Part shown: in pieces, positions 6,097-62,110 of the stretch | Layout of the letters: every line of letters begins with the position of its first letter | Position numbering within the stretch: the first letter of the stretch is position 1 | Assembly: GCA_043748725.1 (NCBI GenBank) | Contig: JAYVER010000226.1 | Coordinates: forward strand, 8,922 to 72,921 | Direction: 5' to 3' | DNA from: Chloracidobacterium sp. | GTDB lineage: Bacteria > Acidobacteriota > Blastocatellia > Pyrinomonadales > Pyrinomonadaceae | Length of the DNA stretch: 64,000 nt | The notes under the pieces: generated by a model | Seen by the model: only the letters and a program-made list of their open reading frames with translations | Told to the model about the DNA's origin: nothing | Database searches by the model: none | Made by a program: the position numbers and the translations under genes

Positions 6097-6609
6097 ATGG
6101 AAGAGCTTGTTGCCATCGCCAGGATCGTAAAGCCGCGCGGGCTGCGTGGTGAGTTGTTCGCCGAGCTATTGACGGATTTTCCTAAGCGTTTTGAGGATTT
6201 GGAAACGGTAACTGCGGTTATGCCGGATGAGAGCCGCTTTGAGTTGAAAATTGAAGAGCATTGGTTTCAAAGCGGCCGAATAGTTTTGAAATTTGCAGGT
6301 TATGACTCGATAGAGTTAGGCGAAACGCTACGAAACGCGGAAATATGTATCCCGCAATCTGCAGCTGTTGAGCTTGACGCGGACGAGTATTTCGACTGGG
6401 AATTGGTCGGCTGCAAGGTCGAAACCATCGAGGGGAAAACTGTCGGCACGGTTCGGGAACTAATGCGGACGGGCGGAACGGAGATTTTGGTAATTGACGG
6501 CCAAGAGAAAGAAACTTTAATACCATTTGCCGCCGCGATCTGCCCCAAAGTGGATATTGAGAACAAGCTGATCCAGATTGATCCACCTAAAGGACTGTTA
6601 GACTTTTAG
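6097..6609 (+). CDS. rimM: 16S rRNA processing protein RimM
   Basis: The start is RimM-like ([14 protein letters not shown]), a PRC-barrel C-terminus is present, and synteny fits. Confidence 0.93.
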
Positions 6610-6672
6610 ATTTTGGATTTTGGATTTCGGATTTTGGATTAAAAGAATCGAAAATCCAAAATCGGCAATCCA
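6610..6672. repeat. heptamer array (ATTTTGG)x4 plus an inverted partner (CCAAAAT words)
   Basis: attttgg attttgg atttcgg attttgg ... tcgaaaatccaaaatcggcaatccaaaat. The right arm abuts the trmD ATG at 6675. Confidence 0.9.
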
Positions 6673-6674
6673 AA

Positions 6675-7388
6675 ATGCGAATAGATGTCTTAACAATTTT
6701 CCCGGAGTATTTCAGCGAGATCTTTGAATTTGGGATTATCCGCCGGGCAAAACTCGCTAGCGTAGTCGAGATCAACATTCACGACATTCGCAAATATGCG
6801 ACCGATAAGCACAAAATGGTCGATGACCGGCCATTTGGTGGTGGCGACGGGATGGTTTTGAAGCCCGAACCCTTATTCGCCGCAATTGAAAATTTAATAG
6901 GCACAAGCGAACGCGACGCATACCCGACAGGCACGCGGGTCGTTATGCTCACGCCGCAGGGAAAGCCTTTGAAACAGGCGGTTGCGGGAGAGTTGTCCCG
7001 TGAGACAAAGCATCTCGTCCTGATATGCGGCCGCTACGAGGGCGTTGACGAACGTGTCAACGAAGCTTTGGTCACCGACGAGATCTCGATCGGCGATTAT
7101 GTGCTTTCAGGCGGTGAACCCGCAGCGGTGGTCGTTGTAGATGCACTCGTCAGGCTTTTGCCGGGCGCATTGGGCAGCGATACGTCGGCTGATAACGATT
7201 CTTTTTCCGACGGCCTGCTCGACTGTCCGCATTACACGCGACCGGCCGAATTTAGAGGGATGAAAGTCCCGGGAGTTTTATTGAACGGCAATCATGCCGA
7301 GATTGAAAAATGGCGTAAAATGAAGGGGCTCGAAAAAACGAGAGCCTCGCGCGGAGATTTATTAACAGGAGAAAATGGTGATATGTGA
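6675..7388 (+). CDS. trmD: tRNA (guanine37-N1)-methyltransferase TrmD
   Basis: [13 protein letters not shown]...[15 protein letters not shown]...[11 protein letters not shown]...[11 protein letters not shown]. Confidence 0.97.
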
Positions 7389-21660: not shown

Positions 21661-23487
21661 CTAGATCAGATCGACCGGCTCGATCTTGATCTGGGCGCGT
21701 TTTAGCGTGACGTTTGATTCCCTACAGAACTCGCGAACGCTTTTGAGCTTATCGGGCGGCATATTGCGCACCGATACTAGAATTTCGGCAATATCTTTTT
21801 GACGGCAGATGTCGGCGAGCGAGCCGTTTCCGTCAAAAACCTTGAGGCCGTGAATAAGTTTATCCTTTTTCAACGGATCGTCGTCGATAAAACCGACCGC
21901 CGTGTAGTTCCACTCTGGATTATTGTTCAGTTCCCTTAAAACCATCTCGCCGCCGTCGCCGGCACCGTAAATAAGCACTTTTTGCCCGTCACCCGAAACC
22001 GGGAGAGGCAGTATTTGTCTGATCACGCGAAACGCCATGCGGCTCCCGACGACGGCTAACAGCAAAAGAATGCCGTCAAGAATGAACACCGTCCTTGAAA
22101 AGCCCTCGAACCGATATATGAGCAGAACCGCCATTACGCTCAGAATCGAGCCGAGCAGCACGCCTTTTGTAAACGTAATAAAGTCGCCGATACTCGTATA
22201 TCGCCACAAACCGCGATACACGCCGACGGCCAGAAACGAGCCGATCTTGATCAGTATCAGCAGCGGCAGGGTCTTGAGGAAAAGATCCCAGTTCGTCGAG
22301 CTCTCGAACGAAGCAAACAGCAAAGCAAACGCCGAGTAATACGCAAGCGTCACCAGAAAAGCGTCGAGAAATACCTCGAAGATGCGGCGTTTGTGTGACA
22401 CATTGACCAGAAACGCGAACACGGCATTTTCGGCAGCCGCCTGATCTTCATCCGTGCCTTCATAAACCTTGACTTTAGAAAGATAAACGCCAAGTATCAC
22501 CAGCAAAAGCGTAAAAAACCCTATGAGCGCGAAGCTCTTATAGACGCCGATCTGGCCGACAGAAAGTGCGAGAGCACCGGCGATAATGGCAAAGGCGTAG
22601 AGCATCAAGACGGCGTTTCGTTCCGAGAGGCCGAGCGCAACGAGCCGGTGCGATGTATGGTCGAGGCCGCCCTGTGACGCTTTTCTGCCCCAAAGTTTTC
22701 GTAGAACCGTCACAAATGTCGTGTCGAAAATGGGAACGAAAAGCACTAGGACGGGAACAGCCAGAATGGCCACAATGCCGCGCGAGCGCCCGCCGACCTG
22801 ATTTAGCAAGACCGAACCCGAAAGCAAAAATCCGACAAACATTGAGCCGCAGTCGCCCATAAAGATCGACGCCGGATTGAAATTAAAGACCAAAAATCCA
22901 AGCAACGCCCCGATCAATGCTGCGGATAAAAGCAGCTCGTTTGTCAGCCCGTTCGCGGCAAAATTGAGCGCCAGCGAAACGGACGCGATGGCTGAAATGC
23001 CGACCGCGAGACCGTCCATATTGTCGAGCAGGTTTATAGCGTTCGTAATGCCGATGACCCAAAACACGGTCAGCCAGATATCAATGATCTCGAAGCCGGT
23101 CAACGGCAGCTTGAGTCCTGAAAGCACAAGAATGCCGGCACCGATGAGCTGGCCGATCAGCTTTTGATAGGGCCGGATCGTTAAGATGTCGTCAAGTAGC
23201 CCGACCAAAAACAGGAATGCGCTGCCGCCAAACACGACCATTGAGCTGCGTGTCGGCGGCACAAGGAGAAAGTAGGCAACGGCCGTGGAAAGAAATATCG
23301 CGACACCGCCGAGCATCGCCGTCGGACGTTTATGCCAGCGGTCGGATTTCGGCTTGGCGACAAAACCGCGCCGCACAGCAAATGTCCTGACGGATAGCGT
23401 CAGGATTACCGACAAAATTGCGGCCACACTTCCGACAAAGATTGGGTTTGAGATCAAACCTTGCATAATTAAGAAAGAATGGAACAC
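21661..23487 (-). CDS. MraY/WecA-family polyprenyl-phosphate sugar-1-P transferase fused to an extra 4-TM and Rossmann-like (CapD/WbaP N-terminal type) module
   Basis: NAINLLDNMDGLA and FMGDCGSMFVGF motifs occur in the N-terminal half. VLIYGAGDGGEMVLREL...VGFIDDDP occurs near the C-terminus. The start could be GTG 23487 or ATG 23466. Confidence 0.8.
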   Translation of the reverse strand: MFHSFLIMQGLISNPIFVGSVAAILSVILTLSVRTFAVRRGFVAKPKSDRWHKRPTAMLGGVAIFLSTAVAYFLLVPPTRSSMVVFGGSAFLFLVGLLDDILTIRPYQKLIGQLIGAGILVLSGLKLPLTGFEIIDIWLTVFWVIGITNAINLLDNMDGLAVGISAIASVSLALNFAANGLTNELLLSAALIGALLGFLVFNFNPASIFMGDCGSMFVGFLLSGSVLLNQVGGRSRGIVAILAVPVLVLFVPIFDTTFVTVLRKLWGRKASQGGLDHTSHRLVALGLSERNAVLMLYAFAIIAGALALSVGQIGVYKSFALIGFFTLLLVILGVYLSKVKVYEGTDEDQAAAENAVFAFLVNVSHKRRIFEVFLDAFLVTLAYYSAFALLFASFESSTNWDLFLKTLPLLILIKIGSFLAVGVYRGLWRYTSIGDFITFTKGVLLGSILSVMAVLLIYRFEGFSRTVFILDGILLLLAVVGSRMAFRVIRQILPLPVSGDGQKVLIYGAGDGGEMVLRELNNNPEWNYTAVGFIDDDPLKKDKLIHGLKVFDGNGSLADICRQKDIAEILVSVRNMPPDKLKSVREFCRESNVTLKRAQIKIEPVDLI

Positions 23488-23583
23488 GGATGGCCACGGA
23501 TCGAAACGGATTTACACGGATATGATTTTTTATTTTAATCCTCTGACCCGTGTTTATCCGTGCTTTTTCAGTGCAGATCCGTG
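23483..23583. repeat. inverted pair of 10-bp-phased word arrays (CACGGAT x4 / ATCCGTG-type x4-5)
   Basis: CGGAT starts at 23487, 23497, 23507 and 23517. An AT-rich spacer follows, then CCGTG/CAGTG words near 23547, 23557, 23568 and 23578. Confidence 0.9.
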
Positions 23584-23642
23584 TTCTATTTATTGTTAAG
23601 CGTTATTACAAGCCAATTATCGCAGAAAATCAACCGTCAAAG

Positions 23643-33261: not shown

Positions 33262-33361
33262 TAACAACTGATTATCGCAGATTTACACGGATTATTTTTA
33301 TTAGGTCAGATCCGCAGCAATCGAGTTAGGTAAATTTATCCGCGCCAATCCGCGCCAATCC
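33262..33361. repeat. 10-bp-phased word arrays downstream of the GxxExxY gene (GATT x3, then ATCC x3)
   Basis: GATT starts at 33270, 33280 and 33290. ATCC starts at 33338, 33348 and 33358; the last units encode the C-terminal residues of the ORF. Confidence 0.9.
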
Positions 33362-33767
33362 GTTGTTCAAATTCTTCCGCTGGCTTTCCTAACCGGTTGA
33401 TTAAACGATGATGTTCGAAACTTTGTGCTCCGAAATTCAAAATCAGTGCGAGTTCCAGCCCGGTTGCTTTTAGATAGTTCAATGTCTGGGCTTTGTGAAC
33501 ATTTGTAATTCTTTCCGCAACCTTTAATTCGAGAATTAGCCGCTGCTCGACAAGAATATCTGCACAATAATCCCCGACAATTTCACCTTCGAATCTAACC
33601 TTGATAGGCACCTGCTGTTCGGCAAACATCCCCTCTCTCCGAAACAGAACCATCAACGAATTTTCATAAACCTTTTCCAAATACCCGTGACCAAGCGTTC
33701 GATGACCCTGCATTCCAAGTCCAATGACCTTATAAGTCAGGTCACCATATAGCAGTTCTTCGCTCAT
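33336..33767 (-). CDS. GxxExxY protein (PD-(D/E)XK-like orphan cassette family)
   Basis: GHGYLEKVYENSL (GxxExxY) ...DILVEQRLILELKV... matches the TIGR04256-type pattern as I recall it. Confidence 0.8.
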   Translation of the reverse strand: MSEELLYGDLTYKVIGLGMQGHRTLGHGYLEKVYENSLMVLFRREGMFAEQQVPIKVRFEGEIVGDYCADILVEQRLILELKVAERITNVHKAQTLNYLKATGLELALILNFGAQSFEHHRLINRLGKPAEEFEQRIGADWRG

Positions 33768-33775
33768 AAAATATT

Positions 33776-33840
33776 CAACAACGGATTAACGCAGATTGAC
33801 ACGGATTACTCTTTATTTTTGATTGAGAAATATCCGCCGT
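33776..33840. repeat. 10-bp-phased GATT word array upstream of the GxxExxY gene
   Basis: aacaacggattaacgcagattgacacggatta, with GATT starting at 33784, 33794 and 33804. The words match those at 33262-33293 and 53488-53520. Confidence 0.88.
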
Positions 33841-33850
33841 TTCAAACTCC

Positions 33851-36094: not shown

Positions 36095-37381
36095 CTACCG
36101 GCTTTGCAAAAGCCTTTCGTATATCCGGCGGTAGCGCAACCCGCCAACCGTTTCGAGATCAAAACGGTGTTTGGCCGTCCGGCGGCATCGTTCGCCAATG
36201 TCGCCGAGGGCGGCAAGCTGCTCTATCGCGGCAAGATAACTTACCCGGTCAAAGCGGTCGATCAGGACGCCGACCGCTTCGTCCCGGATCAGGCTGTCAA
36301 CATCGCCAACGCCCGAATTGGCAATTATCGGCAGACCGGCGGCTAAATATTCGGCGTTTTTCGTTGGCGACGACGCTTGTTTTGAATAACAGCGTTTGAT
36401 AAACGAGATCGCGGCATCGGCGGCGTTAAGATAAGCCGGAATTTCGTCAGGAGTGACGCTTTTGACGAGATAATCGGCTTCCCCAAAGCCTTTTTCTCTG
36501 ATCCTTGCTATGGCCAACTCGGGCTGCCGCTGGGTGAGAATGATTACAAAAATATTTGGGTCTGCTTCACGTGCCGCCGCAAAGAAATCAAACATCTCGT
36601 CAGTCAAATACCAGCCGCCAAACGAGCCGACATACGCTAAAACCCTGCGATTTCCCACTCCCAACCGCCGCCGCATTTCCGTGCGTGAATCTTCAGTCGC
36701 CTCATCAAATCGCGTCAGATCCACGCAGCACGGAATGACCTCAATAGGACGACCGTCCAATTTTGGATTTTGGATTTTGGATTTTGGATTTTCGGAATCC
36801 GCGTTCCCAAATAAAATATCTCTTGCTTTTTCCGTCAAAACAACAAATCCGTCGGCTTCTTTCAGCAGCCATTTCTCGACTCGTTTGGCAGCGCGGTAGA
36901 GCCAGCCGCCTTCCGGCCAGATGCCGGCGTCGGTGTATTCTTCTGGAAAAAAACCGCGAATATCGAATAACAGCTTTGGCTTACGTCGCGAAAATTTACG
37001 GGCCAAAGCACCCATCAGCGTCGGAATATGCACCCGCCCGTGCAGAATGTCTATCTTTTCGCGTGCAATAAAACGCCGGACAAACAATGTTCCGCGAAAG
37101 ATGTCATACGCCGTCGCAATGGCCGATGGCCGTTTATGATACCGCAGCCAATGCCAGTCAATGCCATTTTCAGCCAACTTCGCCCTCAGTCTTTTTTCTT
37201 CCCCTTCTCCAACCGCCTGTGGCTCGAAAGTAAGCAATGCAACTTGTACCGCCAAATCGCCGCGTCCCCGCGTCCCCGCGTTCCCGTGTCCAATTAACTC
37301 TTTCAAATACGGAATCACCTGCGTCTGAACCAGCGGCTCGCGTAAACCGAAATAACAAATATAAAGGGTTTTGGAAGGCAT
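36095..37381 (-). CDS. glycosyltransferase family 4 carrying an intragenic heptamer-repeat insert
   Basis: PTKNAEYLAAGLPIIANSGVGDV motif. The segment [15 protein letters not shown] is encoded by the TTTTGGA repeats. Confidence 0.82.
   Translation of the reverse strand: MPSKTLYICYFGLREPLVQTQVIPYLKELIGHGNAGTRGRGDLAVQVALLTFEPQAVGEGEEKRLRAKLAENGIDWHWLRYHKRPSAIATAYDIFRGTLFVRRFIAREKIDILHGRVHIPTLMGALARKFSRRKPKLLFDIRGFFPEEYTDAGIWPEGGWLYRAAKRVEKWLLKEADGFVVLTEKARDILFGNADSENPKSKIQNPKLDGRPIEVIPCCVDLTRFDEATEDSRTEMRRRLGVGNRRVLAYVGSFGGWYLTDEMFDFFAAAREADPNIFVIILTQRQPELAIARIREKGFGEADYLVKSVTPDEIPAYLNAADAAISFIKRCYSKQASSPTKNAEYLAAGLPIIANSGVGDVDSLIRDEAVGVLIDRFDRVSYLAAIEQLAALGDIGERCRRTAKHRFDLETVGGLRYRRIYERLLQSR
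36761..36796. repeat. tandem heptamer (TTTTGGA)x4 plus a degenerate unit inside the GT4 coding sequence
   Basis: ttttgga x4 (36761-36788), then ttttcgga. It is the same word as the intergenic array at 6610-6672. Confidence 0.95.
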
Positions 37382-45381: not shown

Positions 45382-47510
<2,129 letters not shown>

Positions 47511-47676
47511 TATTGCTCCTAAATTGTAAGACAAAATTAACTAATCTACGAATATGCTGCCGGTTTAAGGATATTTTTATTTTTTTGTCAGCATTCTATG
47601 CAACTCTTTAATAAAGGCGCTATACTAACAATAAAGTATGTTTACCATTAATTAAAGATTTATAACAAGGTTTAAT

Positions 47677-50597: not shown

Positions 50598-50622
50598 CAC
50601 GAATTACACGAATAACACGAAT
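50598..50622. repeat. CACGAAT x3 at a 9-bp period
   Basis: Starts at 50598, 50607 and 50616, within the 39-bp spacer between divergent start codons. Confidence 0.9.
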
Positions 50623-50625
50623 TAT

Positions 50626-51807
50626 ATGAAAAGGCTATTGTTTTTAACGATTATTCTGCTTCCGGTTTTTGTGTTCGCGCAGCCAAAACTTGTGCCGAAC
50701 AAGATCAGGTTAAAGAGCGGCAAAACATTTAACCTCAATCTGCCGTCTGAATTTGAGATCATGCCGGCGGTCGAAGGGCTGAAACGGGTGCGGTTTTTTG
50801 CCAAATCGCCGGACGGCCGTGTCTTTGTTACGGATATGTATAACCTGACGGACAATAAACGCGGGGTCGTGTACATTCTCGACGGTTTTGATGCAGTTAC
50901 GGGCAAGTTTGCCAAGATCATTCCGTACATGACCAATCTCAAAAATCCGAACAGCGTCCAATTTTACCGCGACGCAAACGGCCAGGATTGGTTCTATCTC
51001 GCGGAAACGGACAAGCTGACGCGGCGAAAATTTACCCTCGGCGAGACCAAGCCGACCGACCACGCTCCGCAGACGCTAGCAACTTTTCCGGATTACGGCC
51101 TGAGCTACAAATACGGCGGCTGGCACCTCACGCGGACGATTGCCTTTGCCCCGAACGGCAAACTTTACGTCTCGGTCGGGTCGAGCTGTAACGCCTGCGT
51201 CGAAAAAGAAAAAGTGCGGGCAAGCGTGATCGAAATGAACCCGGACGGCAGCGGCCAACACGAATTTGCGAGAGGATTGCGTAATGCCGTCGGGCTGAAA
51301 TGGATCGGTAACTTCCTGTGGGCTTCGGGTCAGGGTGCCGATCATTTGGGTCTGCAAAAGCCGGACGAGACGTTTTACGCGTTGAAGGATGGGATCGATT
51401 ACGGCTGGCCGTATTGCTATTCTGCGTTGGGCAAGATCATCGCCGACCCCGCATATCGCCGACCCGAAGGCTGTAAAAATGTAGCCGCTCCATACGCCTT
51501 CTTCCCCGCCCATGCTTCGGCACTCGGCTTTGATTATTTTGACGACGCTGACTCATCCGGCACGATCAAAGACGCATTCCTCGTCGCGCTCCACGGCTCG
51601 ACCAACAAAGCGATAGGCCACGGCTACAAGATCGTCATTATGCGAAAAGGCGAGAGGCTCCAAGATTTTATAAGCGGCTTTTTGCAAGGCTCAACGGTCG
51701 TCGGCAGGCCGTGCGACATCATGAAACTCGACGCTAATTCATTCATGTTTACGGATGATTATTCGGGCATTGTCTATCTCGTCCGGAGACGAGTCGGGAG
51801 AGTCTAG
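50626..51807 (+). CDS. sorbosone/glucose dehydrogenase-like beta-propeller protein (secreted)
   Basis: Signal peptide MKRLLFLTIILLPVFVFAQ and FAPNGKLYVSVGSSCNAC. The start was set at ATG 50626. Confidence 0.78.
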   Translation: MKRLLFLTIILLPVFVFAQPKLVPNKIRLKSGKTFNLNLPSEFEIMPAVEGLKRVRFFAKSPDGRVFVTDMYNLTDNKRGVVYILDGFDAVTGKFAKIIPYMTNLKNPNSVQFYRDANGQDWFYLAETDKLTRRKFTLGETKPTDHAPQTLATFPDYGLSYKYGGWHLTRTIAFAPNGKLYVSVGSSCNACVEKEKVRASVIEMNPDGSGQHEFARGLRNAVGLKWIGNFLWASGQGADHLGLQKPDETFYALKDGIDYGWPYCYSALGKIIADPAYRRPEGCKNVAAPYAFFPAHASALGFDYFDDADSSGTIKDAFLVALHGSTNKAIGHGYKIVIMRKGERLQDFISGFLQGSTVVGRPCDIMKLDANSFMFTDDYSGIVYLVRRRVGRV

Positions 51808-51831
51808 AGCGTCTAGTGAGTCTTGAGAGTC
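51791..51831. repeat. GAGTC-word array, five units at an exact 9-bp period
   Basis: GAGTC starts at 51791, 51800, 51818 and 51827, with GCGTC at 51809. The first two units lie inside the last codons of the upstream gene. Confidence 0.92.
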
Positions 51832-51868
51832 AAAAAAAGACTTACTCACGAAAATTGAGGGAAACTTA

Positions 51869-52231
51869 ATGGCAACGTTCAAAAAATTCGAAGACATTTT
51901 GGGATGGAAAAAAGCTCATGAAACCACGAATTATGTCTATATAGTTACTGGCGAAGGATCATTTTCGAAAGATTTCGGCCTTCGCGATCAATTACGGCGT
52001 GCAAGTGTTTCCATAATGGCCAACATCGCCGAAGGTTTTGGTCGTCGGTCGGACAAGGAGTTTGCTAATTTTCTAAATATGGCCCACGGATCTGCGGCTG
52101 AATGCCAGTCACATTTATATATTGCTCTTGACTTTCATTATTTAACCCAACCACAATTCGACCAACTTTATGCGGCGTTCGGCGAATGTTCAAAAATGGT
52201 TATTGGTCTCAGCCATCATTTGCGTAAATAA
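51869..52231 (+). CDS. four-helix-bundle protein (23S rRNA intervening-sequence protein family, TIGR02436-like)
   Basis: QLRRASVSIMANIAEGFGRRSDKEFANFLNMAHGSAAECQSHL is the hallmark motif. Confidence 0.88.
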   Translation: MATFKKFEDILGWKKAHETTNYVYIVTGEGSFSKDFGLRDQLRRASVSIMANIAEGFGRRSDKEFANFLNMAHGSAAECQSHLYIALDFHYLTQPQFDQLYAAFGECSKMVIGLSHHLRK

Positions 52232-52251
52232 ACCCACCCAATATGCTCTTT

Positions 52252-52328
52252 GACTCTTCTGACTCACAAGACTTTCGAGACTTACATGACTCTCTGGACT
52301 TGCCAGACTCTCAAGACTCGCTAGACTA
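52252..52328. repeat. GACT(C)-word array, nine units at an exact 9-bp period (inverse of the 51791-51831 array)
   Basis: GACT starts at 52252, 52261, 52270, 52279, 52288, 52297, 52306, 52315 and 52324. The array ends 8 nt before the bshA ATG. Confidence 0.95.
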
Positions 52329-52335
52329 GAAACTA

Positions 52336-53478
52336 ATGAATATTGGCATCACTGTTTATCCGACATACGGCGGCAGCGGAATTGTTGGCTCCGAGCTGGG
52401 CCGGGACTTGGCTGAACGTGGCCACAACGTCCATTTTATCTCGTCATTTTTGCCGACGCGGCTTACGGAGTTGAACGAGCGGATACATTTTCACGAGGTG
52501 GAAATGATGTCGTATCCGCTGTTTGAGCATCAGCCGTATGATCTCGCTCTGGCGACAAAAATGGCGACCGTCGCCCGGGCCGAAAAGCTCGATCTTTTTC
52601 ACGTCCATTACGCGATCCCGCATTCGATCAGCGCGATCCTGGCGCGGGAATCTATCAAGCAAAAACGATATGTGCCGGTAATTACGACGCTTCACGGCAC
52701 CGATATCACGCTGGTCGGCGCCGACCGCTCGTATTTGCCGATCACTCGTTACGGTCTGCAGCAATCGGATGGCGTGACGGCCGTGTCGAAGTTTTTAAAG
52801 CAGGCGACGATCGAGACGTTTGATTTCGACGAGATCGAAGTGATTCCCAATTTTATTTGTCCGACTCACTATAAACGTCTTCCTGACTCGCCTTTGCGGG
52901 CCGAATTAGCTCCGAATGGAGAACGGCTTTTAACCCACGTTTCCAATTTCCGCCCGGTAAAACGCCCCGCCGATTGCGTTGAGATCCTCGCAAAGGTTAG
53001 GGCTGGCGGCGAAAACGCACGGCTGGTGATGGTCGGTGACGGGCCGGAATTATCCGCAGTCCGCTACCGTGCCGAACAGATCGGCGTGATCGACGATTGC
53101 ATTTTTGTCGGCAAACAGGCGAATATTGCCGACTATCTTGGCGTTGCCGATGTTTTTTTGCTGCCGTCCGAACTGGAATCGTTCGGCCTTGCCGCTTTAG
53201 AGGCACAAGCGTGCGAAGTGCCGGTCATAGCGACTCGTATAGGCGGCATCCCTGAAGTTGTTAATGAAGGCGAGAGCGGCTTTTTAAGCGACGTTGGCGA
53301 TATTGAAAAAATGAGTATTGATACACTGCGGTTGCTTGGCGACGAGCAACTGCGGCGTGCCTTTGGCGAACGAGGCCGTGAACTTGCCATCCAGCGATAT
53401 TCGACCGGACAGATCATCCCGCAATACATCGCTTTTTACGAAAAGGTAGTGCAAAAGGCCAAATCCGCAACCGCGTGA
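52336..53478 (+). CDS. bshA: N-acetyl-alpha-D-glucosaminyl L-malate synthase BshA (bacillithiol biosynthesis GT4)
   Basis: The start MNIGITVYPTYGGSGIVGSELGRDLAERGHNVHFI is characteristic of BshA. Confidence 0.88.
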   Translation: MNIGITVYPTYGGSGIVGSELGRDLAERGHNVHFISSFLPTRLTELNERIHFHEVEMMSYPLFEHQPYDLALATKMATVARAEKLDLFHVHYAIPHSISAILARESIKQKRYVPVITTLHGTDITLVGADRSYLPITRYGLQQSDGVTAVSKFLKQATIETFDFDEIEVIPNFICPTHYKRLPDSPLRAELAPNGERLLTHVSNFRPVKRPADCVEILAKVRAGGENARLVMVGDGPELSAVRYRAEQIGVIDDCIFVGKQANIADYLGVADVFLLPSELESFGLAALEAQACEVPVIATRIGGIPEVVNEGESGFLSDVGDIEKMSIDTLRLLGDEQLRRAFGERGRELAIQRYSTGQIIPQYIAFYEKVVQKAKSATA

Positions 53479-53487
53479 GAGGAGAGA

Positions 53488-53564
53488 AACAACGGATTAA
53501 CCCGGATTTACGCCGATTAAATTCCTATTTCTTAATCCGTGTAAATCCGCGTCAATCCGTTGTT
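53488..53564. repeat. 33-nt-arm imperfect palindrome made of 10-bp-phased GGATT / AATCC words
   Basis: aacaacggattaacccggatttacgccgattaa ... ttaatccgtgtaaatccgcgtcaatccgttgtt. Confidence 0.92.
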
Positions 53565-61248: not shown

Positions 61249-62110
61249 AAAACAGCAGTCAGCAGTCAGCAATCAGCAGTCAGACGCCGAACGTCAAATT
61301 CTAACCGAAACAGGCTTCTTTTGGCGAGAACGCGATGGCGTTAGAGTGTTGGTATGCCGCGATCTGGAAGATGCGGGTTTTGTAAATGGGTTTTCGACGC
61401 GAATCGGCGGCGTTTCGCCGTTTCCCAATGACGACCTGAATCTCGCCGGTTTTGACGAAGACCCAGCCGCGAATATTGCCGAAAACCGGCGGCGTTTTCT
61501 CGCGGTTTTCGGCGGTGAAATGCAGCTGGCAACCGTCTGGCAGGTTCATGGGCACGCGATCAAAACCATCAAAGACATGGCGGAAATTGGTAGTTCCGAC
61601 GAGCGGGCGGACGCGATTGTTTCTGATCTAAGCGGCTTTTTCGTCGGTGTAAAAACTGCGGATTGTGTGCCGATACTGATCGGTGATCCGAGAAGCGGAG
61701 CATTTGCAGCTGTCCACGCGGGTTGGCGTGGCACGGCGCAATCAATTGTGAAAAAGGCGGTTACGAGAATGAGCGATATTTACGGCACGGACCAGAAAAA
61801 CCTGATCTGTGCAATCGGCCCGGCGGCAAGCGGCTGCAACTATGAGATAGGCGGGGATGTGATCAACGCATTCGCTGAAAATTTTGCAAACAGCGAAAAG
61901 TATCTCAGCCCGACCCGCGACGGACACGCTCTGGTCGATCTTCACCTCGCCAATCGCGATCAATTGATCGACCTTGGCGTGCGGGATGAAAACATCTTTA
62001 CAGCCCCGTTCTGCACGATTGAGCGACCTGATCTTTTCTTTTCTTACCGCTTGGAAAAAAGGAAATACGGCAAAACCGGCCGTCTTTTATCCGTCATCGG
62101 CCGTCGTTAG
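61223..62110 (+). CDS. pgeF: peptidoglycan editing factor PgeF (YfiH / laccase-domain, DUF152)
   Basis: GFSTRIGGVS...VHGH...VKTADCVPIL...VHAGWRGT. The start codon is uncertain. Confidence 0.88.
   Translation: MSMPMESIIKQQSAVSNQQSDAERQILTETGFFWRERDGVRVLVCRDLEDAGFVNGFSTRIGGVSPFPNDDLNLAGFDEDPAANIAENRRRFLAVFGGEMQLATVWQVHGHAIKTIKDMAEIGSSDERADAIVSDLSGFFVGVKTADCVPILIGDPRSGAFAAVHAGWRGTAQSIVKKAVTRMSDIYGTDQKNLICAIGPAASGCNYEIGGDVINAFAENFANSEKYLSPTRDGHALVDLHLANRDQLIDLGVRDENIFTAPFCTIERPDLFFSYRLEKRKYGKTGRLLSVIGRR
61253..61280. repeat. tandem heptamer (CAGCAGT)x4, third unit CAGCAAT
   Basis: Read directly at the acpS/pgeF divergent junction. Confidence 0.95.

Follow-up and report, generated by a model that had tools for sequence, protein, structure and literature searches.

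The PF05635 family (S23p, or 23S rRNA IVS protein) and the GxxExxY family are among the most widespread small bacterial protein families of unknown function, and the origin and movement of the rRNA intervening sequences (IVSs) that carry PF05635 genes have been a puzzle since the 1990s. The STRR repeats of cyanobacteria add to a list of short tandem repeats in bacterial genomes that are themselves unexplained. In Coxiella burnetii, the 23S rRNA IVS consists of a PF05635 ORF and a 28-bp terminal inverted-repeat stem; upstream of the ORF lie tandem GACAGAT heptamers, in numbers that differ from strain to strain, and RNase III was shown to cut in the stem, where the first repeat begins (PMC4990558). 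The authors of that analysis considered the protein unlikely to be produced, and rRNA IVSs, which also occur in Leptospira, are regarded as selfish elements of unknown mobility (PMC4990558). Heptamer arrays have been described in Xanthomonas, where GGGAATC arrays form 70-75 convergent pairs, in Nostoc (GGGGA(C/T)T; PMC4692102) and in the Beggiatoaceae (TAACTGA; PMC4679880). In addition, PF05635 has been reported to resemble Avd (PMC10053308), a protein of diversity-generating retroelements (DGRs) that has the same fold and forms a pentameric ring that binds nucleic acid.

The window analysed here is a stretch of 64,000 nucleotides from Chloracidobacterium sp., a member of the Pyrinomonadaceae, in which a PF05635 gene that lies between two protein-coding genes is bracketed by inverted arrays of a 9-nt repeat. 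The features of this locus, and of related elements elsewhere in the window, are:

50626-51807, + strand: upstream host gene, encoding a GSDH/TrAA12-like dehydrogenase (ORF and profile search)
51791-51831, + strand: left arm, five GAGTC-type words, one of them GCGTC (sequence, TRF and pattern count)
51832-51868, + strand: short 5' leader of the cassette gene, read from the sequence and not conserved among orthologous cassettes
51869-52231, + strand: gene for a 120-aa four-helix-bundle protein, PF05635/TIGR02436 (profiles and predicted structure)
52252-52328, + strand: right arm, nine GACT(C/T/A) words (sequence, TRF and pattern count)
52300-52327, + strand: promoter-like match TTGCCA-16-TAGACT within the right arm; its end lies 8 nt upstream of the bshA start codon
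52336-53478, + strand: downstream host gene bshA (TIGR03999 equivalog)
53489-53562, no strand assigned: gene-less hairpin of the CGGATT 10-nt array family, directly after bshA
33270-33846, - strand: second cassette, GxxExxY (PF13366/TIGR04256), with its gene at 33336-33767 and inverted arrays of 10-nt period
23484-23590, no strand assigned: two CACGGAT 10-nt arrays in inverted orientation, without a gene and akin to the CGGATT family (TRF and repeat comparison)

The left-arm words begin at 51791, 51800, 51809, 51818 and 51827 (GAGTC, GAGTC, GCGTC, GAGTC and GAGTC, respectively) and those of the right arm at 52252, 52261, 52270, 52279, 52288, 52297, 52306, 52315 and 52324 (GACTC, GACTC, GACTT, GACTT, GACTC, GACTT, GACTC, GACTC and GACTA). 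Both series keep an exact 9-bp period, and the arms are inverted, the right-arm word being the reverse complement of the left-arm word. The initial annotation had reported the same left arm and, downstream, nine GACT(C/T) words at 9-bp spacing; the number, spacing and end point of the latter are as it described, but the ninth word is GACTA. The dehydrogenase ORF ends with a stop codon at 51805-51807, so the first two left-arm words lie inside this ORF, as had been noted, and the array supplies its C-terminal codons and stop codon. At the other end, the right array stops 8 nt before the ATG of bshA at 52336, where no Shine-Dalgarno sequence is visible, in agreement with the earlier description; the leader of the cassette gene contains a Shine-Dalgarno-like GAGGG at 51857-51861, 7 nt before its ATG. 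The identity of bshA is secure (TIGR03999, 490 bits versus a cut-off of 274), and the dehydrogenase gene, the cassette and bshA are all on one strand, which gives the cassette ORF the sense orientation of an IVS ORF. Both arrays are detected by TRF, and their identity across 10 independent metagenome assemblies excludes an artefact of assembly. A search of Rfam, over the whole window at the gathering threshold and over the cassette region at E up to 10, found no family for the arms. The sole Rfam match in the window is a TPP riboswitch.

The phased words far exceed what shuffled sequence yields. When 5-mers of any kind were chained at periods of 6-12, the longest phased chain in the window had 9 copies, versus a mean of 4.0 and a maximum of 5 in 60 dinucleotide-preserving shuffles of the whole window, which answers the question of a composition-matched null that had been set beforehand. 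The window also contains 13 matches to GAGTCNNNNGAGTC at no more than one mismatch (expectation 2.67), 11 of them within the two arrays, and this number was reached in 0 of 100 shuffles. The inverted phased arrays around the PF05635 gene are real, and shuffled sequence never yields them.

The protein encoded between the arms is a clear member of the family to which it had been assigned initially. It matches PF05635 (E 4e-35, 120.6 bits, cut-off 33.8) and TIGR02436 (E 2e-33, 114.9 bits, cut-off 24), and a phmmer search of the PDB pairs it with 2GSC (XCC0516) at E 2e-12. Its AlphaFold model has four long helices (pLDDT 95.6) and superposes on 2GSC in Foldseek with a TM score of 0.88-0.92; the closest structures, 2GSC and 2RLD, are pentameric rings of five chains each. 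The model also resembles Avd (4DWL and 8UB7; TM 0.75-0.84), although sequence identity is just 12-15% and, unlike at an Avd locus, no reverse transcriptase and no template or variable repeats appear in the gene list with Pfam assignments for 6 kb on either side. The protein is under purifying selection, and synonymous sites are saturated among its orthologs. The gene was first described as an orphan, a label that does not hold for a family with 4335 homolog matches. Neither this protein nor that of the GxxExxY cassette has a match in PADLOC or PHROGs.

Phased arrays are a feature of the family and not just of this locus. In a set of 76 PF05635 loci that spans many phyla, 72% have an upstream array and 53% a downstream array with 4 or more copies, versus 3% and 4%, respectively, in displaced control windows and 13% (5/38) in other intergenic regions of the PF05635-bearing loci, an enrichment of ~20-fold over the displaced windows and ~5-fold over the other intergenic regions. 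The upstream flank and the reverse-complemented downstream flank have a median of 14 6-mers in common (5 in controls, p 3e-18), and the period is the same in both arms at 30 of 33 loci, the commonest being 7 nt (43/55 arrays). Neighbouring genes are mostly co-directional with the cassette (55/72 upstream, 57/69 downstream), and roughly two-thirds of 13 PF05635 loci in a separate collection of viral contigs have the inverted-array layout. The repeat word goes with the clade of the protein and not with the host. Of the 15 loci with a protein that shares 55% or more identity with that of the window, 14 have at least 4 inward RAGTY words, versus 4 of 59 distant relatives, and the RAGTY-bearing close relatives include MAGs labelled Kuenenia, Heliobacteriaceae and Nitrospirota. 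The words of close relatives are GAGTT or AAGTC, and those of distant relatives are unrelated heptamers. A search for rRNA-embedded examples among 20 PF05635 loci, including those of candidate-phyla-radiation bacteria, found two tRNAs and no rRNA.

The arrays and the gene that they enclose thus behave as one unit, as had been proposed from the window alone: arrays flank most PF05635 genes across phyla, the word follows the clade, the same junction exists in relatives with and without the cassette, and the GxxExxY cassette is built alike. The accompanying proposal that such a unit was undescribed is correct in one respect, as none of the literature searched describes phased arrays as a family-wide feature outside rRNA, but not in another, as the literature does contain one account of an array-flanked PF05635 gene, that of the Coxiella 23S rRNA IVS (PMC4990558); no other was found for PF05635 or GxxExxY genes. 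The arrays share several properties with the heptamer arrays, being short in period, intergenic, frequently arranged as convergent inverted pairs whose G-rich strand reads inward, and variable in copy number between relatives. They differ in that the pair here encloses a gene and has a period of 9 instead of 7, and the heptamer studies drew no link to PF05635 or GxxExxY.

A comparison of the dehydrogenase-bshA junction in relatives, which had been suggested as a check, shows that it can be filled by the cassette (the window, L012, L176, L177 and L178), empty (L094, L158 and L160, among others) or occupied by the right arm alone (L105, without a partner arm), with right-arm remnants in L125, L130 and L132. 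In the five filled junctions the word and the 9-bp phase are kept although the gene is saturated at its synonymous sites; drift is seen in the 4-nt spacers, with the 5-nt word and its phasing conserved. The last right-arm unit, GACTCGCTAGACT, is kept in all filled, right-arm-only and remnant junctions. Filled and empty junctions reveal no evident target-site duplication; the array takes the place of C-terminal codons in the upstream gene, which leaves the insertion without sharp boundaries. Filled, right-arm-only and empty states are interspersed on a neighbour-joining tree of bshA that is too weak for counting gains and losses; the five filled junctions look vertically inherited and their synonymous divergence is saturated, so movement is rare. 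Array hairpins unrelated to the cassette occupy the same junction in L100, L119, L130, L132, L137 and L144. The promoter-like match inside the right arm may have been co-opted for bshA, with the terminal unit GCTAGACT as a candidate -10 element; empty junctions have a TGnTACGAT-type motif in its place. The existence of a right arm without a partner, and of remnants, suggests that the array may serve some purpose independent of pairing, such as that of the bshA promoter.

Other elements in the window have a similar build with different words. The arrays of the GxxExxY cassette, at 33338-33367 and 33777-33810, are of the CGGATT type and have partner arms beyond them, and the hairpin that follows bshA consists of 3 units, a 13-nt loop and 3 inverted units. 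A 31-nt consensus, AACAACGGATTAACGCGGATTTACACGGATTA, is common to the gene-less hairpins, the arms of the GxxExxY cassette in the window and arms in another organism. GAGTC 9-mers are found at the four-helix-bundle gene, and CGGATT 10-mers or GATTTTG heptamers in the other hairpins. The flanks of GxxExxY genes were sampled through four homologs by contig look-up, and a scan of viral contigs with a GxxExxY alignment found no relatives. Like MITEs and REPINs, these elements have inverted ends, gene-less copies with the end consensus of gene-carrying copies (in the CGGATT family), intergenic locations and presence/absence polymorphism. Unlike them, their ends are variable-copy tandem arrays of 7-10 nt, their cargo is neither a transposase nor a RAYT, and no target-site duplication is seen.

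Several known classes of element were considered and rejected for the PF05635 cassette. It is not inserted in a 23S rRNA helix (9, 25 or 45), as Rfam finds no rRNA in the window and the flanks are the dehydrogenase gene and bshA. An integron gene cassette is discounted by arrays on both sides of the ORF and by the lack of an integrase within 6 kb on either side, a CRISPR by its anatomy (9-bp period, arrays on both sides of an ORF), and a DGR by the lack of a reverse transcriptase within 6 kb on either side in the gene list with Pfam assignments. An autonomous TIR transposon would have the terminal inverted repeats that are present here, but the 120-aa PF05635 gene is the only ORF between the arms and there is no transposase.

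The closest parallel is the IVS of Coxiella, in which a PF05635 ORF, heptamers and a stem cut by RNase III occur together, and it leads us to propose that the element is an IVS-type single-gene cassette outside rRNA whose array stem is processed as RNA, by RNase III. This is the reading that we favour, and we put its chance at about even. As in rRNA IVSs, a gene of the same family lies in the loop with its ORF sense to the host transcript, complementary termini are predicted to close a stem around it (here with arms of 41-44 nt), and short tandem direct repeats occupy the 5' part, with a unit of 9 nt here versus 7 in Coxiella. Unlike rRNA IVSs, the cassette lies between two protein-coding genes, its arms have 5 and 9 units of 9 nt versus about 4 heptamers, and RNase III cleavage, which was mapped in Coxiella, would be expected here by analogy. 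The Coxiella ORF is decaying and probably untranslated, whereas the protein here is clearly under purifying selection, which counts against the parallel.

Computed folds are consistent with such a stem. The complementarity of the arms is 74-76% in each of three registers and reaches 95% in a 21-nt core, and their RNA duplex is predicted to have a free energy of -62 kcal/mol; the cofold of the arms (-63.7) compares with -44.4 +/- 4.0 for dinucleotide shuffles (z -4.8). In the predicted minimum-energy fold of the 575-nt transcript, the arms pair around the ORF, which is enclosed in the loop, and the predicted arm duplexes of all five orthologous cassettes range from -44 to -91 kcal/mol. When spacers were shuffled to detect complementarity beyond the words themselves, z was -3.0 to -4.9 for the window, L012 and L178 and not significant for L176 and L177, in a test that is confounded by shared unit ancestry and phase irregularities and so does not separate out selection for pairing. 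Mismatches between the arms in the sense RNA, a possible sign of selection at the RNA level, show only a non-significant trend towards G.U-compatible over A.C (64 versus 45, p 0.08). Counting against an RNA stem are a complementarity of only about 75% and the unequal number of copies (5 versus 9).

In the proposed mechanism, the cassette, being co-directional with the dehydrogenase gene and bshA, would be part of their transcript, in which the 5' GAGUC array and the 3' GACUC array would pair into a long imperfect double-stranded stem with the ORF in its loop. The stem would be a substrate of RNase III, as in rRNA IVSs that bear PF05635 genes, and cleavage would excise the cassette from the host transcript, so that host and cassette expression would be mutually insulated. 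With a tandem array of the same period on either side, the stem could form in several registers; a multi-register stem would tolerate replication slippage and be renewed by it, which would explain why the word and phase persist as copy number and spacers drift. For Chloracidobacterium sp., we infer co-transcription, stem formation in vivo and cleavage.

That the word tracks the protein clade across host phyla is fitted at least as well by a DNA-level mobile unit, or by recognition of the repeat by the protein, as by an RNA stem. The arrays could be the DNA-level ends of a mobile cassette, either as terminal inverted repeats for a recombinase in trans or for the cargo protein, or as homology arms through which the cargo could recombine into gene-less hairpins of its repeat family, with RNA pairing as a by-product; this we consider possible but rather doubtful. 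Such an origin would accommodate the contrast between close and distant loci (14/15 versus 4/59), the filled, empty and right-arm-only states of the orthologous junction, the gene-less hairpins that share AACAACGGATTAACGCGGATTTACACGGATTA with the GxxExxY cassette arms as a MITE does with its parent element, and the reported wedging of PF05635 genes in cas operons (PMC3936711). It is harder to reconcile with a cassette that has no transposase or recombinase of its own or within 6 kb on either side, with the lack of an evident target-site duplication between filled and empty junctions, with apparently vertical inheritance and rare movement, and with arrays that are identical in 10 assemblies; variable-copy tandem arrays would also be unusual as transposon ends. 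We regard it as improbable that the arrays are phased binding sites, whether for a pentameric four-helix-bundle protein (in autoregulation, or in Avd-like scaffolding of RNA or DNA) or for a host factor, even though conservation of the 5-nt word and phase over drifting spacers, co-variation of the word with the protein clade, the pentameric rings of 2GSC and 2RLD, and the place of the structurally similar Avd in an RNA-bound DGR ribonucleoprotein (8UB7) all suit this function, and a binding partner has been postulated in studies of the Nostoc heptamers (bioRxiv 10.1101/2022.06.06.494920). A 7-nt period, that of most arrays, does not keep to one face of B-DNA; a single-strand binder would meet a different word downstream, since that array is the reverse complement; and GxxExxY cassettes and gene-less hairpins have arrays without a four-helix-bundle gene. 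A variant of this explanation, dense GANTC methylation, had been raised initially and is rejected as a unifying principle: 9 of the 14 words are GANTC, but the other five (GCGTC, GACTA and three copies of GACTT) are not, and the words found in relatives are GAGTT, AAGTC or unrelated heptamers.

It is also quite improbable that the arrays are slippage-prone intergenic hairpins or terminators, ubiquitous in the lineage and without a gene-tied function, in which the cassette landed or which it prefers. Short-period arrays are indeed common in Pyrinomonadaceae DNA (70 in 397 kb, counting those of 3 or more exact copies), they occur in 13% of the other intergenic regions of PF05635-bearing loci, and unrelated array hairpins are found at the junction itself in six relatives. 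This explanation, however, predicts a word that tracks the host, whereas the observed word tracks the protein clade across phyla; the GAGTC 9-mers of the four-helix-bundle gene differ from the other hairpin families of the window; and PF05635 flanks are enriched over both kinds of control region.

A broader possibility, which we put forward tentatively and think unlikely as a whole, is that inverted phased arrays of 7-10 nt define the ends of single-gene cassettes without a transposase, which would form a very large and so far unrecognised class, with PF05635 or the nuclease-fold GxxExxY protein (PF13366) as cargo and MITE-like gene-less derivatives. In that case the rRNA IVSs would represent cassettes that happened to insert into rRNA, many of the heptamer arrays known from cyanobacteria, Xanthomonas and others would mark the remains of such cassettes or their vacant sites, and an Avd-like pentameric cargo would recognise its own word and drive maintenance, processing or spread of the array.

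The statistically strong link between gene and array across phyla joins three puzzles, namely the role of PF05635 and GxxExxY proteins, the origin of IVSs, and the heptamer arrays, and it makes them testable. In addition, host stop codons can lie within the arrays and host promoters may be displaced by them, which matters for gene calling and operon prediction in such genomes.

The dehydrogenase-bshA junction of the window carries a cassette in which a gene of the PF05635 family (S23p, proteins of 23S rRNA intervening sequences, IVS) lies between two arrays of short words.

Components of the cassette and its flanks
51791, 51800, 51809, 51818 and 51827: left array, five GAGTC-type words by sequence reading, the third being GCGTC
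51869-52231: enclosed ORF, 120 aa, matching PF05635 (E 4e-35) and TIGR02436
52252 to 52324: right array, nine GACT-type words by sequence reading (five GACTC, three GACTT, the last GACTA)
Flanking genes: a GSDH/TrAA12-like dehydrogenase gene and bshA (TIGR03999, 490 bits)

Sequence reading and TRF, which detects both arrays, confirm the proposal of the initial annotation that the gene is bracketed by phased arrays in inverted mutual orientation, with five and nine words at an exact 9-bp period; its description of the downstream words as GACT(C/T) holds for eight of them and fails for the ninth. The first two words of the left array lie inside the final codons of the upstream ORF (stop codon 51805-51807), and the right array terminates 8 nt 5' of the bshA ATG, at which, as had been noted, no Shine-Dalgarno sequence is visible by reading. 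Allowing one mismatch, GAGTCNNNNGAGTC has 13 matches in the window, 11 of them in the two arrays (2.67 expected; 0 of 100 shuffles reached 13). The claimed periodicity also exceeds its null, since the longest phased 5-mer chain at periods 6-12 has nine units versus a mean of 4 and a maximum of 5 when the window was shuffled 60 times with dinucleotides preserved. The sequence of the cassette region is identical across 10 independent metagenome assemblies. Going by the names that homologues carry, the organism belongs to Acidobacteriota, family Pyrinomonadaceae.

The assignment of the product as a four-helix-bundle protein of the 23S-IVS type was also borne out by the profile matches and by structure: among solved structures it matches 2GSC and 2RLD (five chains deposited in each), and its AlphaFold model is a four-helix bundle (pLDDT 95.6) with TM scores of 0.88-0.92 against 2GSC and 0.75-0.84 against Avd of diversity-generating retroelements, a protein that PF05635 is reported to resemble (PMC10053308). 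Within 6 kb on either side of the cassette there is no reverse transcriptase, integrase or transposase.

Phased flanks had been anticipated for other family members, and across genomes they are common. A one-genome-per-species scan yielded 80 PF05635 loci from many phyla (76 usable for counts), at which inspection by eye found tandem arrays of short period upstream, mirrored downstream by the reverse complement, with lineage-specific words.

Array words at PF05635 loci
Relatives of the window protein: GAGTC or GAGTT
Cyanobacteria: GGGAACA / TGTTCCC
Bacteroidetes MAG: AGGGGCT / CCCCTAG
Planctomycete: GTACTGC

With a detector built by the authors for this survey of 76 + 13 loci (5-mer, ≤1 mismatch, ≥4 copies, period 6-12), phased arrays of at least four copies were found within 130 nt of the ORF at 72% (upstream) and 53% (downstream) of the 76 loci, versus 3% and 4% in control windows displaced by 1-1.5 kb (n = 279); elsewhere at these loci, 5 of 38 intergenic regions had such arrays, and about two-thirds of 13 PF05635 loci in a separate viral-contig collection show the same pattern. 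A median of 14 6-mers is common to the upstream flank and the reverse-complemented downstream flank (controls: 5; p 3e-18). The periods of the two arms agree at 30 of 33 loci, period 7 occurs in 43 of 55 upstream arrays, and the G-rich strand faces inward (G>C in 42/54 upstream arrays, C>G in 31/39 downstream arrays). Median distances are 40 nt from upstream array to ORF and 9.5 nt from ORF to downstream array, and neighbours are co-directional with the cassette in 55/72 cases upstream and 57/69 downstream.

At least four inward RAGTY words are present at 14 of 15 loci whose protein is ≥55% identical to that of the window, and at 4 of 59 distant relatives. Among the former 14 are MAGs with the labels Ca. 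Kuenenia, Heliobacteriaceae and Nitrospirota; such labels, which serve as host assignments, can be wrong, and four independent cases agree. As judged from these sequences, the array word tracks the protein, not the host. From one insertion site to another the same word is found with a period of 7, 8, 9 or 10, and the two periods within a site nearly always match. GANTC methylation is not the common principle of these lineage-specific words, which include GAGTT, GGGAACA, AGGGGCT and GTACTGC; in the window itself, 5 of 14 words (GCGTC, three GACTT, GACTA) are not GANTC.

Three pairs of cassettes (L013/L014, L016/L018, L017/L023; L-numbers denote comparison loci from other genomes or metagenomes) occupy orthologous sites in different Acidobacteriota genomes. 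Those of L013 and L014 separate an ABC ATPase gene from its permease gene, and in L014 a 9-nt array lengthens the upstream ORF by an in-frame (ESR)n tail.

Filled dehydrogenase-bshA junctions are found in the three closest long-contig homologues (77-79% identity) and in L012 (a GTDB Pyrinomonadaceae MAG, 74%). All five, window included, have GAGTC/GACTC arrays at 9 bp, with 3 to about 10 units per arm and differing spacers, and all five keep the final right-arm unit GACTCGCTAGACT about 10 nt 5' of the bshA start; in L176, six near-perfect GAGTCTTGA units indicate recent slippage. Because the cassette protein has a dN of 0.15-0.23 with saturated synonymous sites in this comparison, the gene is under purifying selection and the arrays have long retained their word and phase.

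Comparison of the junction among relatives, as had been suggested, revealed both filled and empty states, the latter in many bshA orthologues, where the dehydrogenase gene lies directly 5' of bshA across a 4-70-nt gap without an array (L094, L158, L160, L117, L126, L135, L157). L105 has only a right arm, with irregular units in common with that of L012, L130 keeps a right-arm GACTC array next to a heptamer hairpin of another kind, and remnants of the right arm persist in L132 and L125. None of 80 metagenome bshA orthologues (73-92% identity) has a PF05635 gene upstream. Unrelated array hairpins occupy this short junction in several relatives (L100, L119, L130, L132, L137, L144), with words that differ among them (GTTCA heptamers, CCATTTA x4, CGGAT 10-mers, TTACGAT heptamers), and the junction is a hot spot for array elements. 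Junction states are interspersed in a bshA tree that is too weak for counting events.

An extended -10-like motif, TGnTAC(G/C)AT, lies 5' of bshA (some 11-26 nt away in those checked) in several junctions lacking a GACTC array (L094, L097, L100, L135, L147, L165) and is absent in filled and right-arm-only junctions; a promoter-like TTGCCA-16-TAGACT lies inside the right arm. The right arm may have been co-opted as a bshA promoter, which would explain the lone survival of right arms.

A second cassette and several gene-less arrays occur in the window.

Other arrays and hairpins
33336-33767, minus strand: GxxExxY gene (PF13366 and TIGR04256 profile matches), within 33270-33846
53489-53562: gene-less hairpin, CGGATTnnnn x3 and complement
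23484-23590: gene-less hairpin, CACGGAT 10-mers
6600-6680: gene-less hairpin, GATTTTG x5 with CAAAATC
103-133: perfect heptamer array, CTCATCC x4.4
36760-36792: perfect heptamer array, ATTTTGG x4.7
61253-61283: perfect heptamer array, CAGCAGT x4.4

The view of the GxxExxY gene as a second such unit is upheld by inverted 10-nt-period flanks, of the CGGATT family in the window and with CGGAT or CACGAAT words at four homologues elsewhere. Its ORF has 143 aa versus 127 aa in most relatives because of read-through into the downstream array. A 31-nt three-unit consensus is common to hairpins 53489-53562 and 23484-23590, the GxxExxY arms and four arms of another organism. The gene lies between two complete hairpins, not in one large loop, in the window and L171, and within the loop in L173 and L174; in either arrangement it is bracketed by arrays predicted to form double-stranded RNA.

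A solo array, CACGAATTA x3 (50598-50624), ends 1 nt before the dehydrogenase gene ATG and occupies most of the 39-nt gap to a divergent ppk2 gene; its CACGAAT word is the GxxExxY arm word of L173 and L174. Both TAACTGA arrays and heptamer arrays that stop 1 nt short of a start codon have been reported in Beggiatoaceae (PMC4679880). One of the three perfect heptamer arrays is apparently inside a long opposite-strand ORF and another is located where two overlapping ORFs meet. Upstream of thiC, at 47407-47512 on the minus strand, there is a TPP riboswitch (RF00059, 70 bits).

The arms of the PF05635 cassette (41-44 nt) are 74-76% complementary in three registers, rising to 95% in a 21-nt core, with a predicted RNA duplex of -62 kcal/mol. 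Cofolding gave -63.7, compared with -44.4 ± 4.0 in shuffled sequence (z -4.8), the arms are paired with each other and enclose the ORF in the minimum-energy structure of a 575-nt transcript, and duplexes of -44 to -91 kcal/mol are predicted in 5/5 orthologues; the case for selection specifically on RNA pairing is only suggestive. The closest precedent is the Coxiella burnetii 23S rRNA IVS, which has an S23p (PF05635) ORF, a 28-bp terminal inverted-repeat stem, tandem GACAGAT heptamers of strain-variable copy number 5' of the ORF, and RNase III cleavage mapped to the point in the stem where the first repeat begins (PMC4990558). PF05635 genes have also been found wedged within cas operons (PMC3936711).

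It is about an even call that the window element represents an IVS-type cassette sited outside rRNA. Such a cassette would share a transcript with its neighbouring genes, its arrays would pair into a long imperfect RNA stem, and cleavage of this stem by RNase III would part the cassette message from that of the host; its tandem arms would make the stem register-tolerant and self-renewing through slippage. The main rival, possible yet rather unlikely, is that the arrays act chiefly at the DNA level, as the ends or homology arms of a mobile unit; the link between array word and protein clade, the presence/absence polymorphism at the junction and the MITE-like gene-less copies favour it, and it is compatible with the IVS reading. 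That the arrays are protein-binding sites is improbable, and that they are incidental host hairpins is more doubtful still.

Heptamer arrays of unknown function have been reported in Nostoc and, as convergent GGGAATC pairs, in Xanthomonas, without a link to PF05635 or GxxExxY genes (PMC4692102), and no published description of array-flanked genes of either family was found except the C. burnetii IVS. The initial annotation regarded the unit as undescribed, which must be tempered by that precedent: the window element would be a variant of the known IVS kind, sited outside rRNA. The general architecture, with phased arrays of one period in both arms, the G-rich strand facing inward, words specific to the clade and cargo from two unrelated families, appears to be new to the literature.
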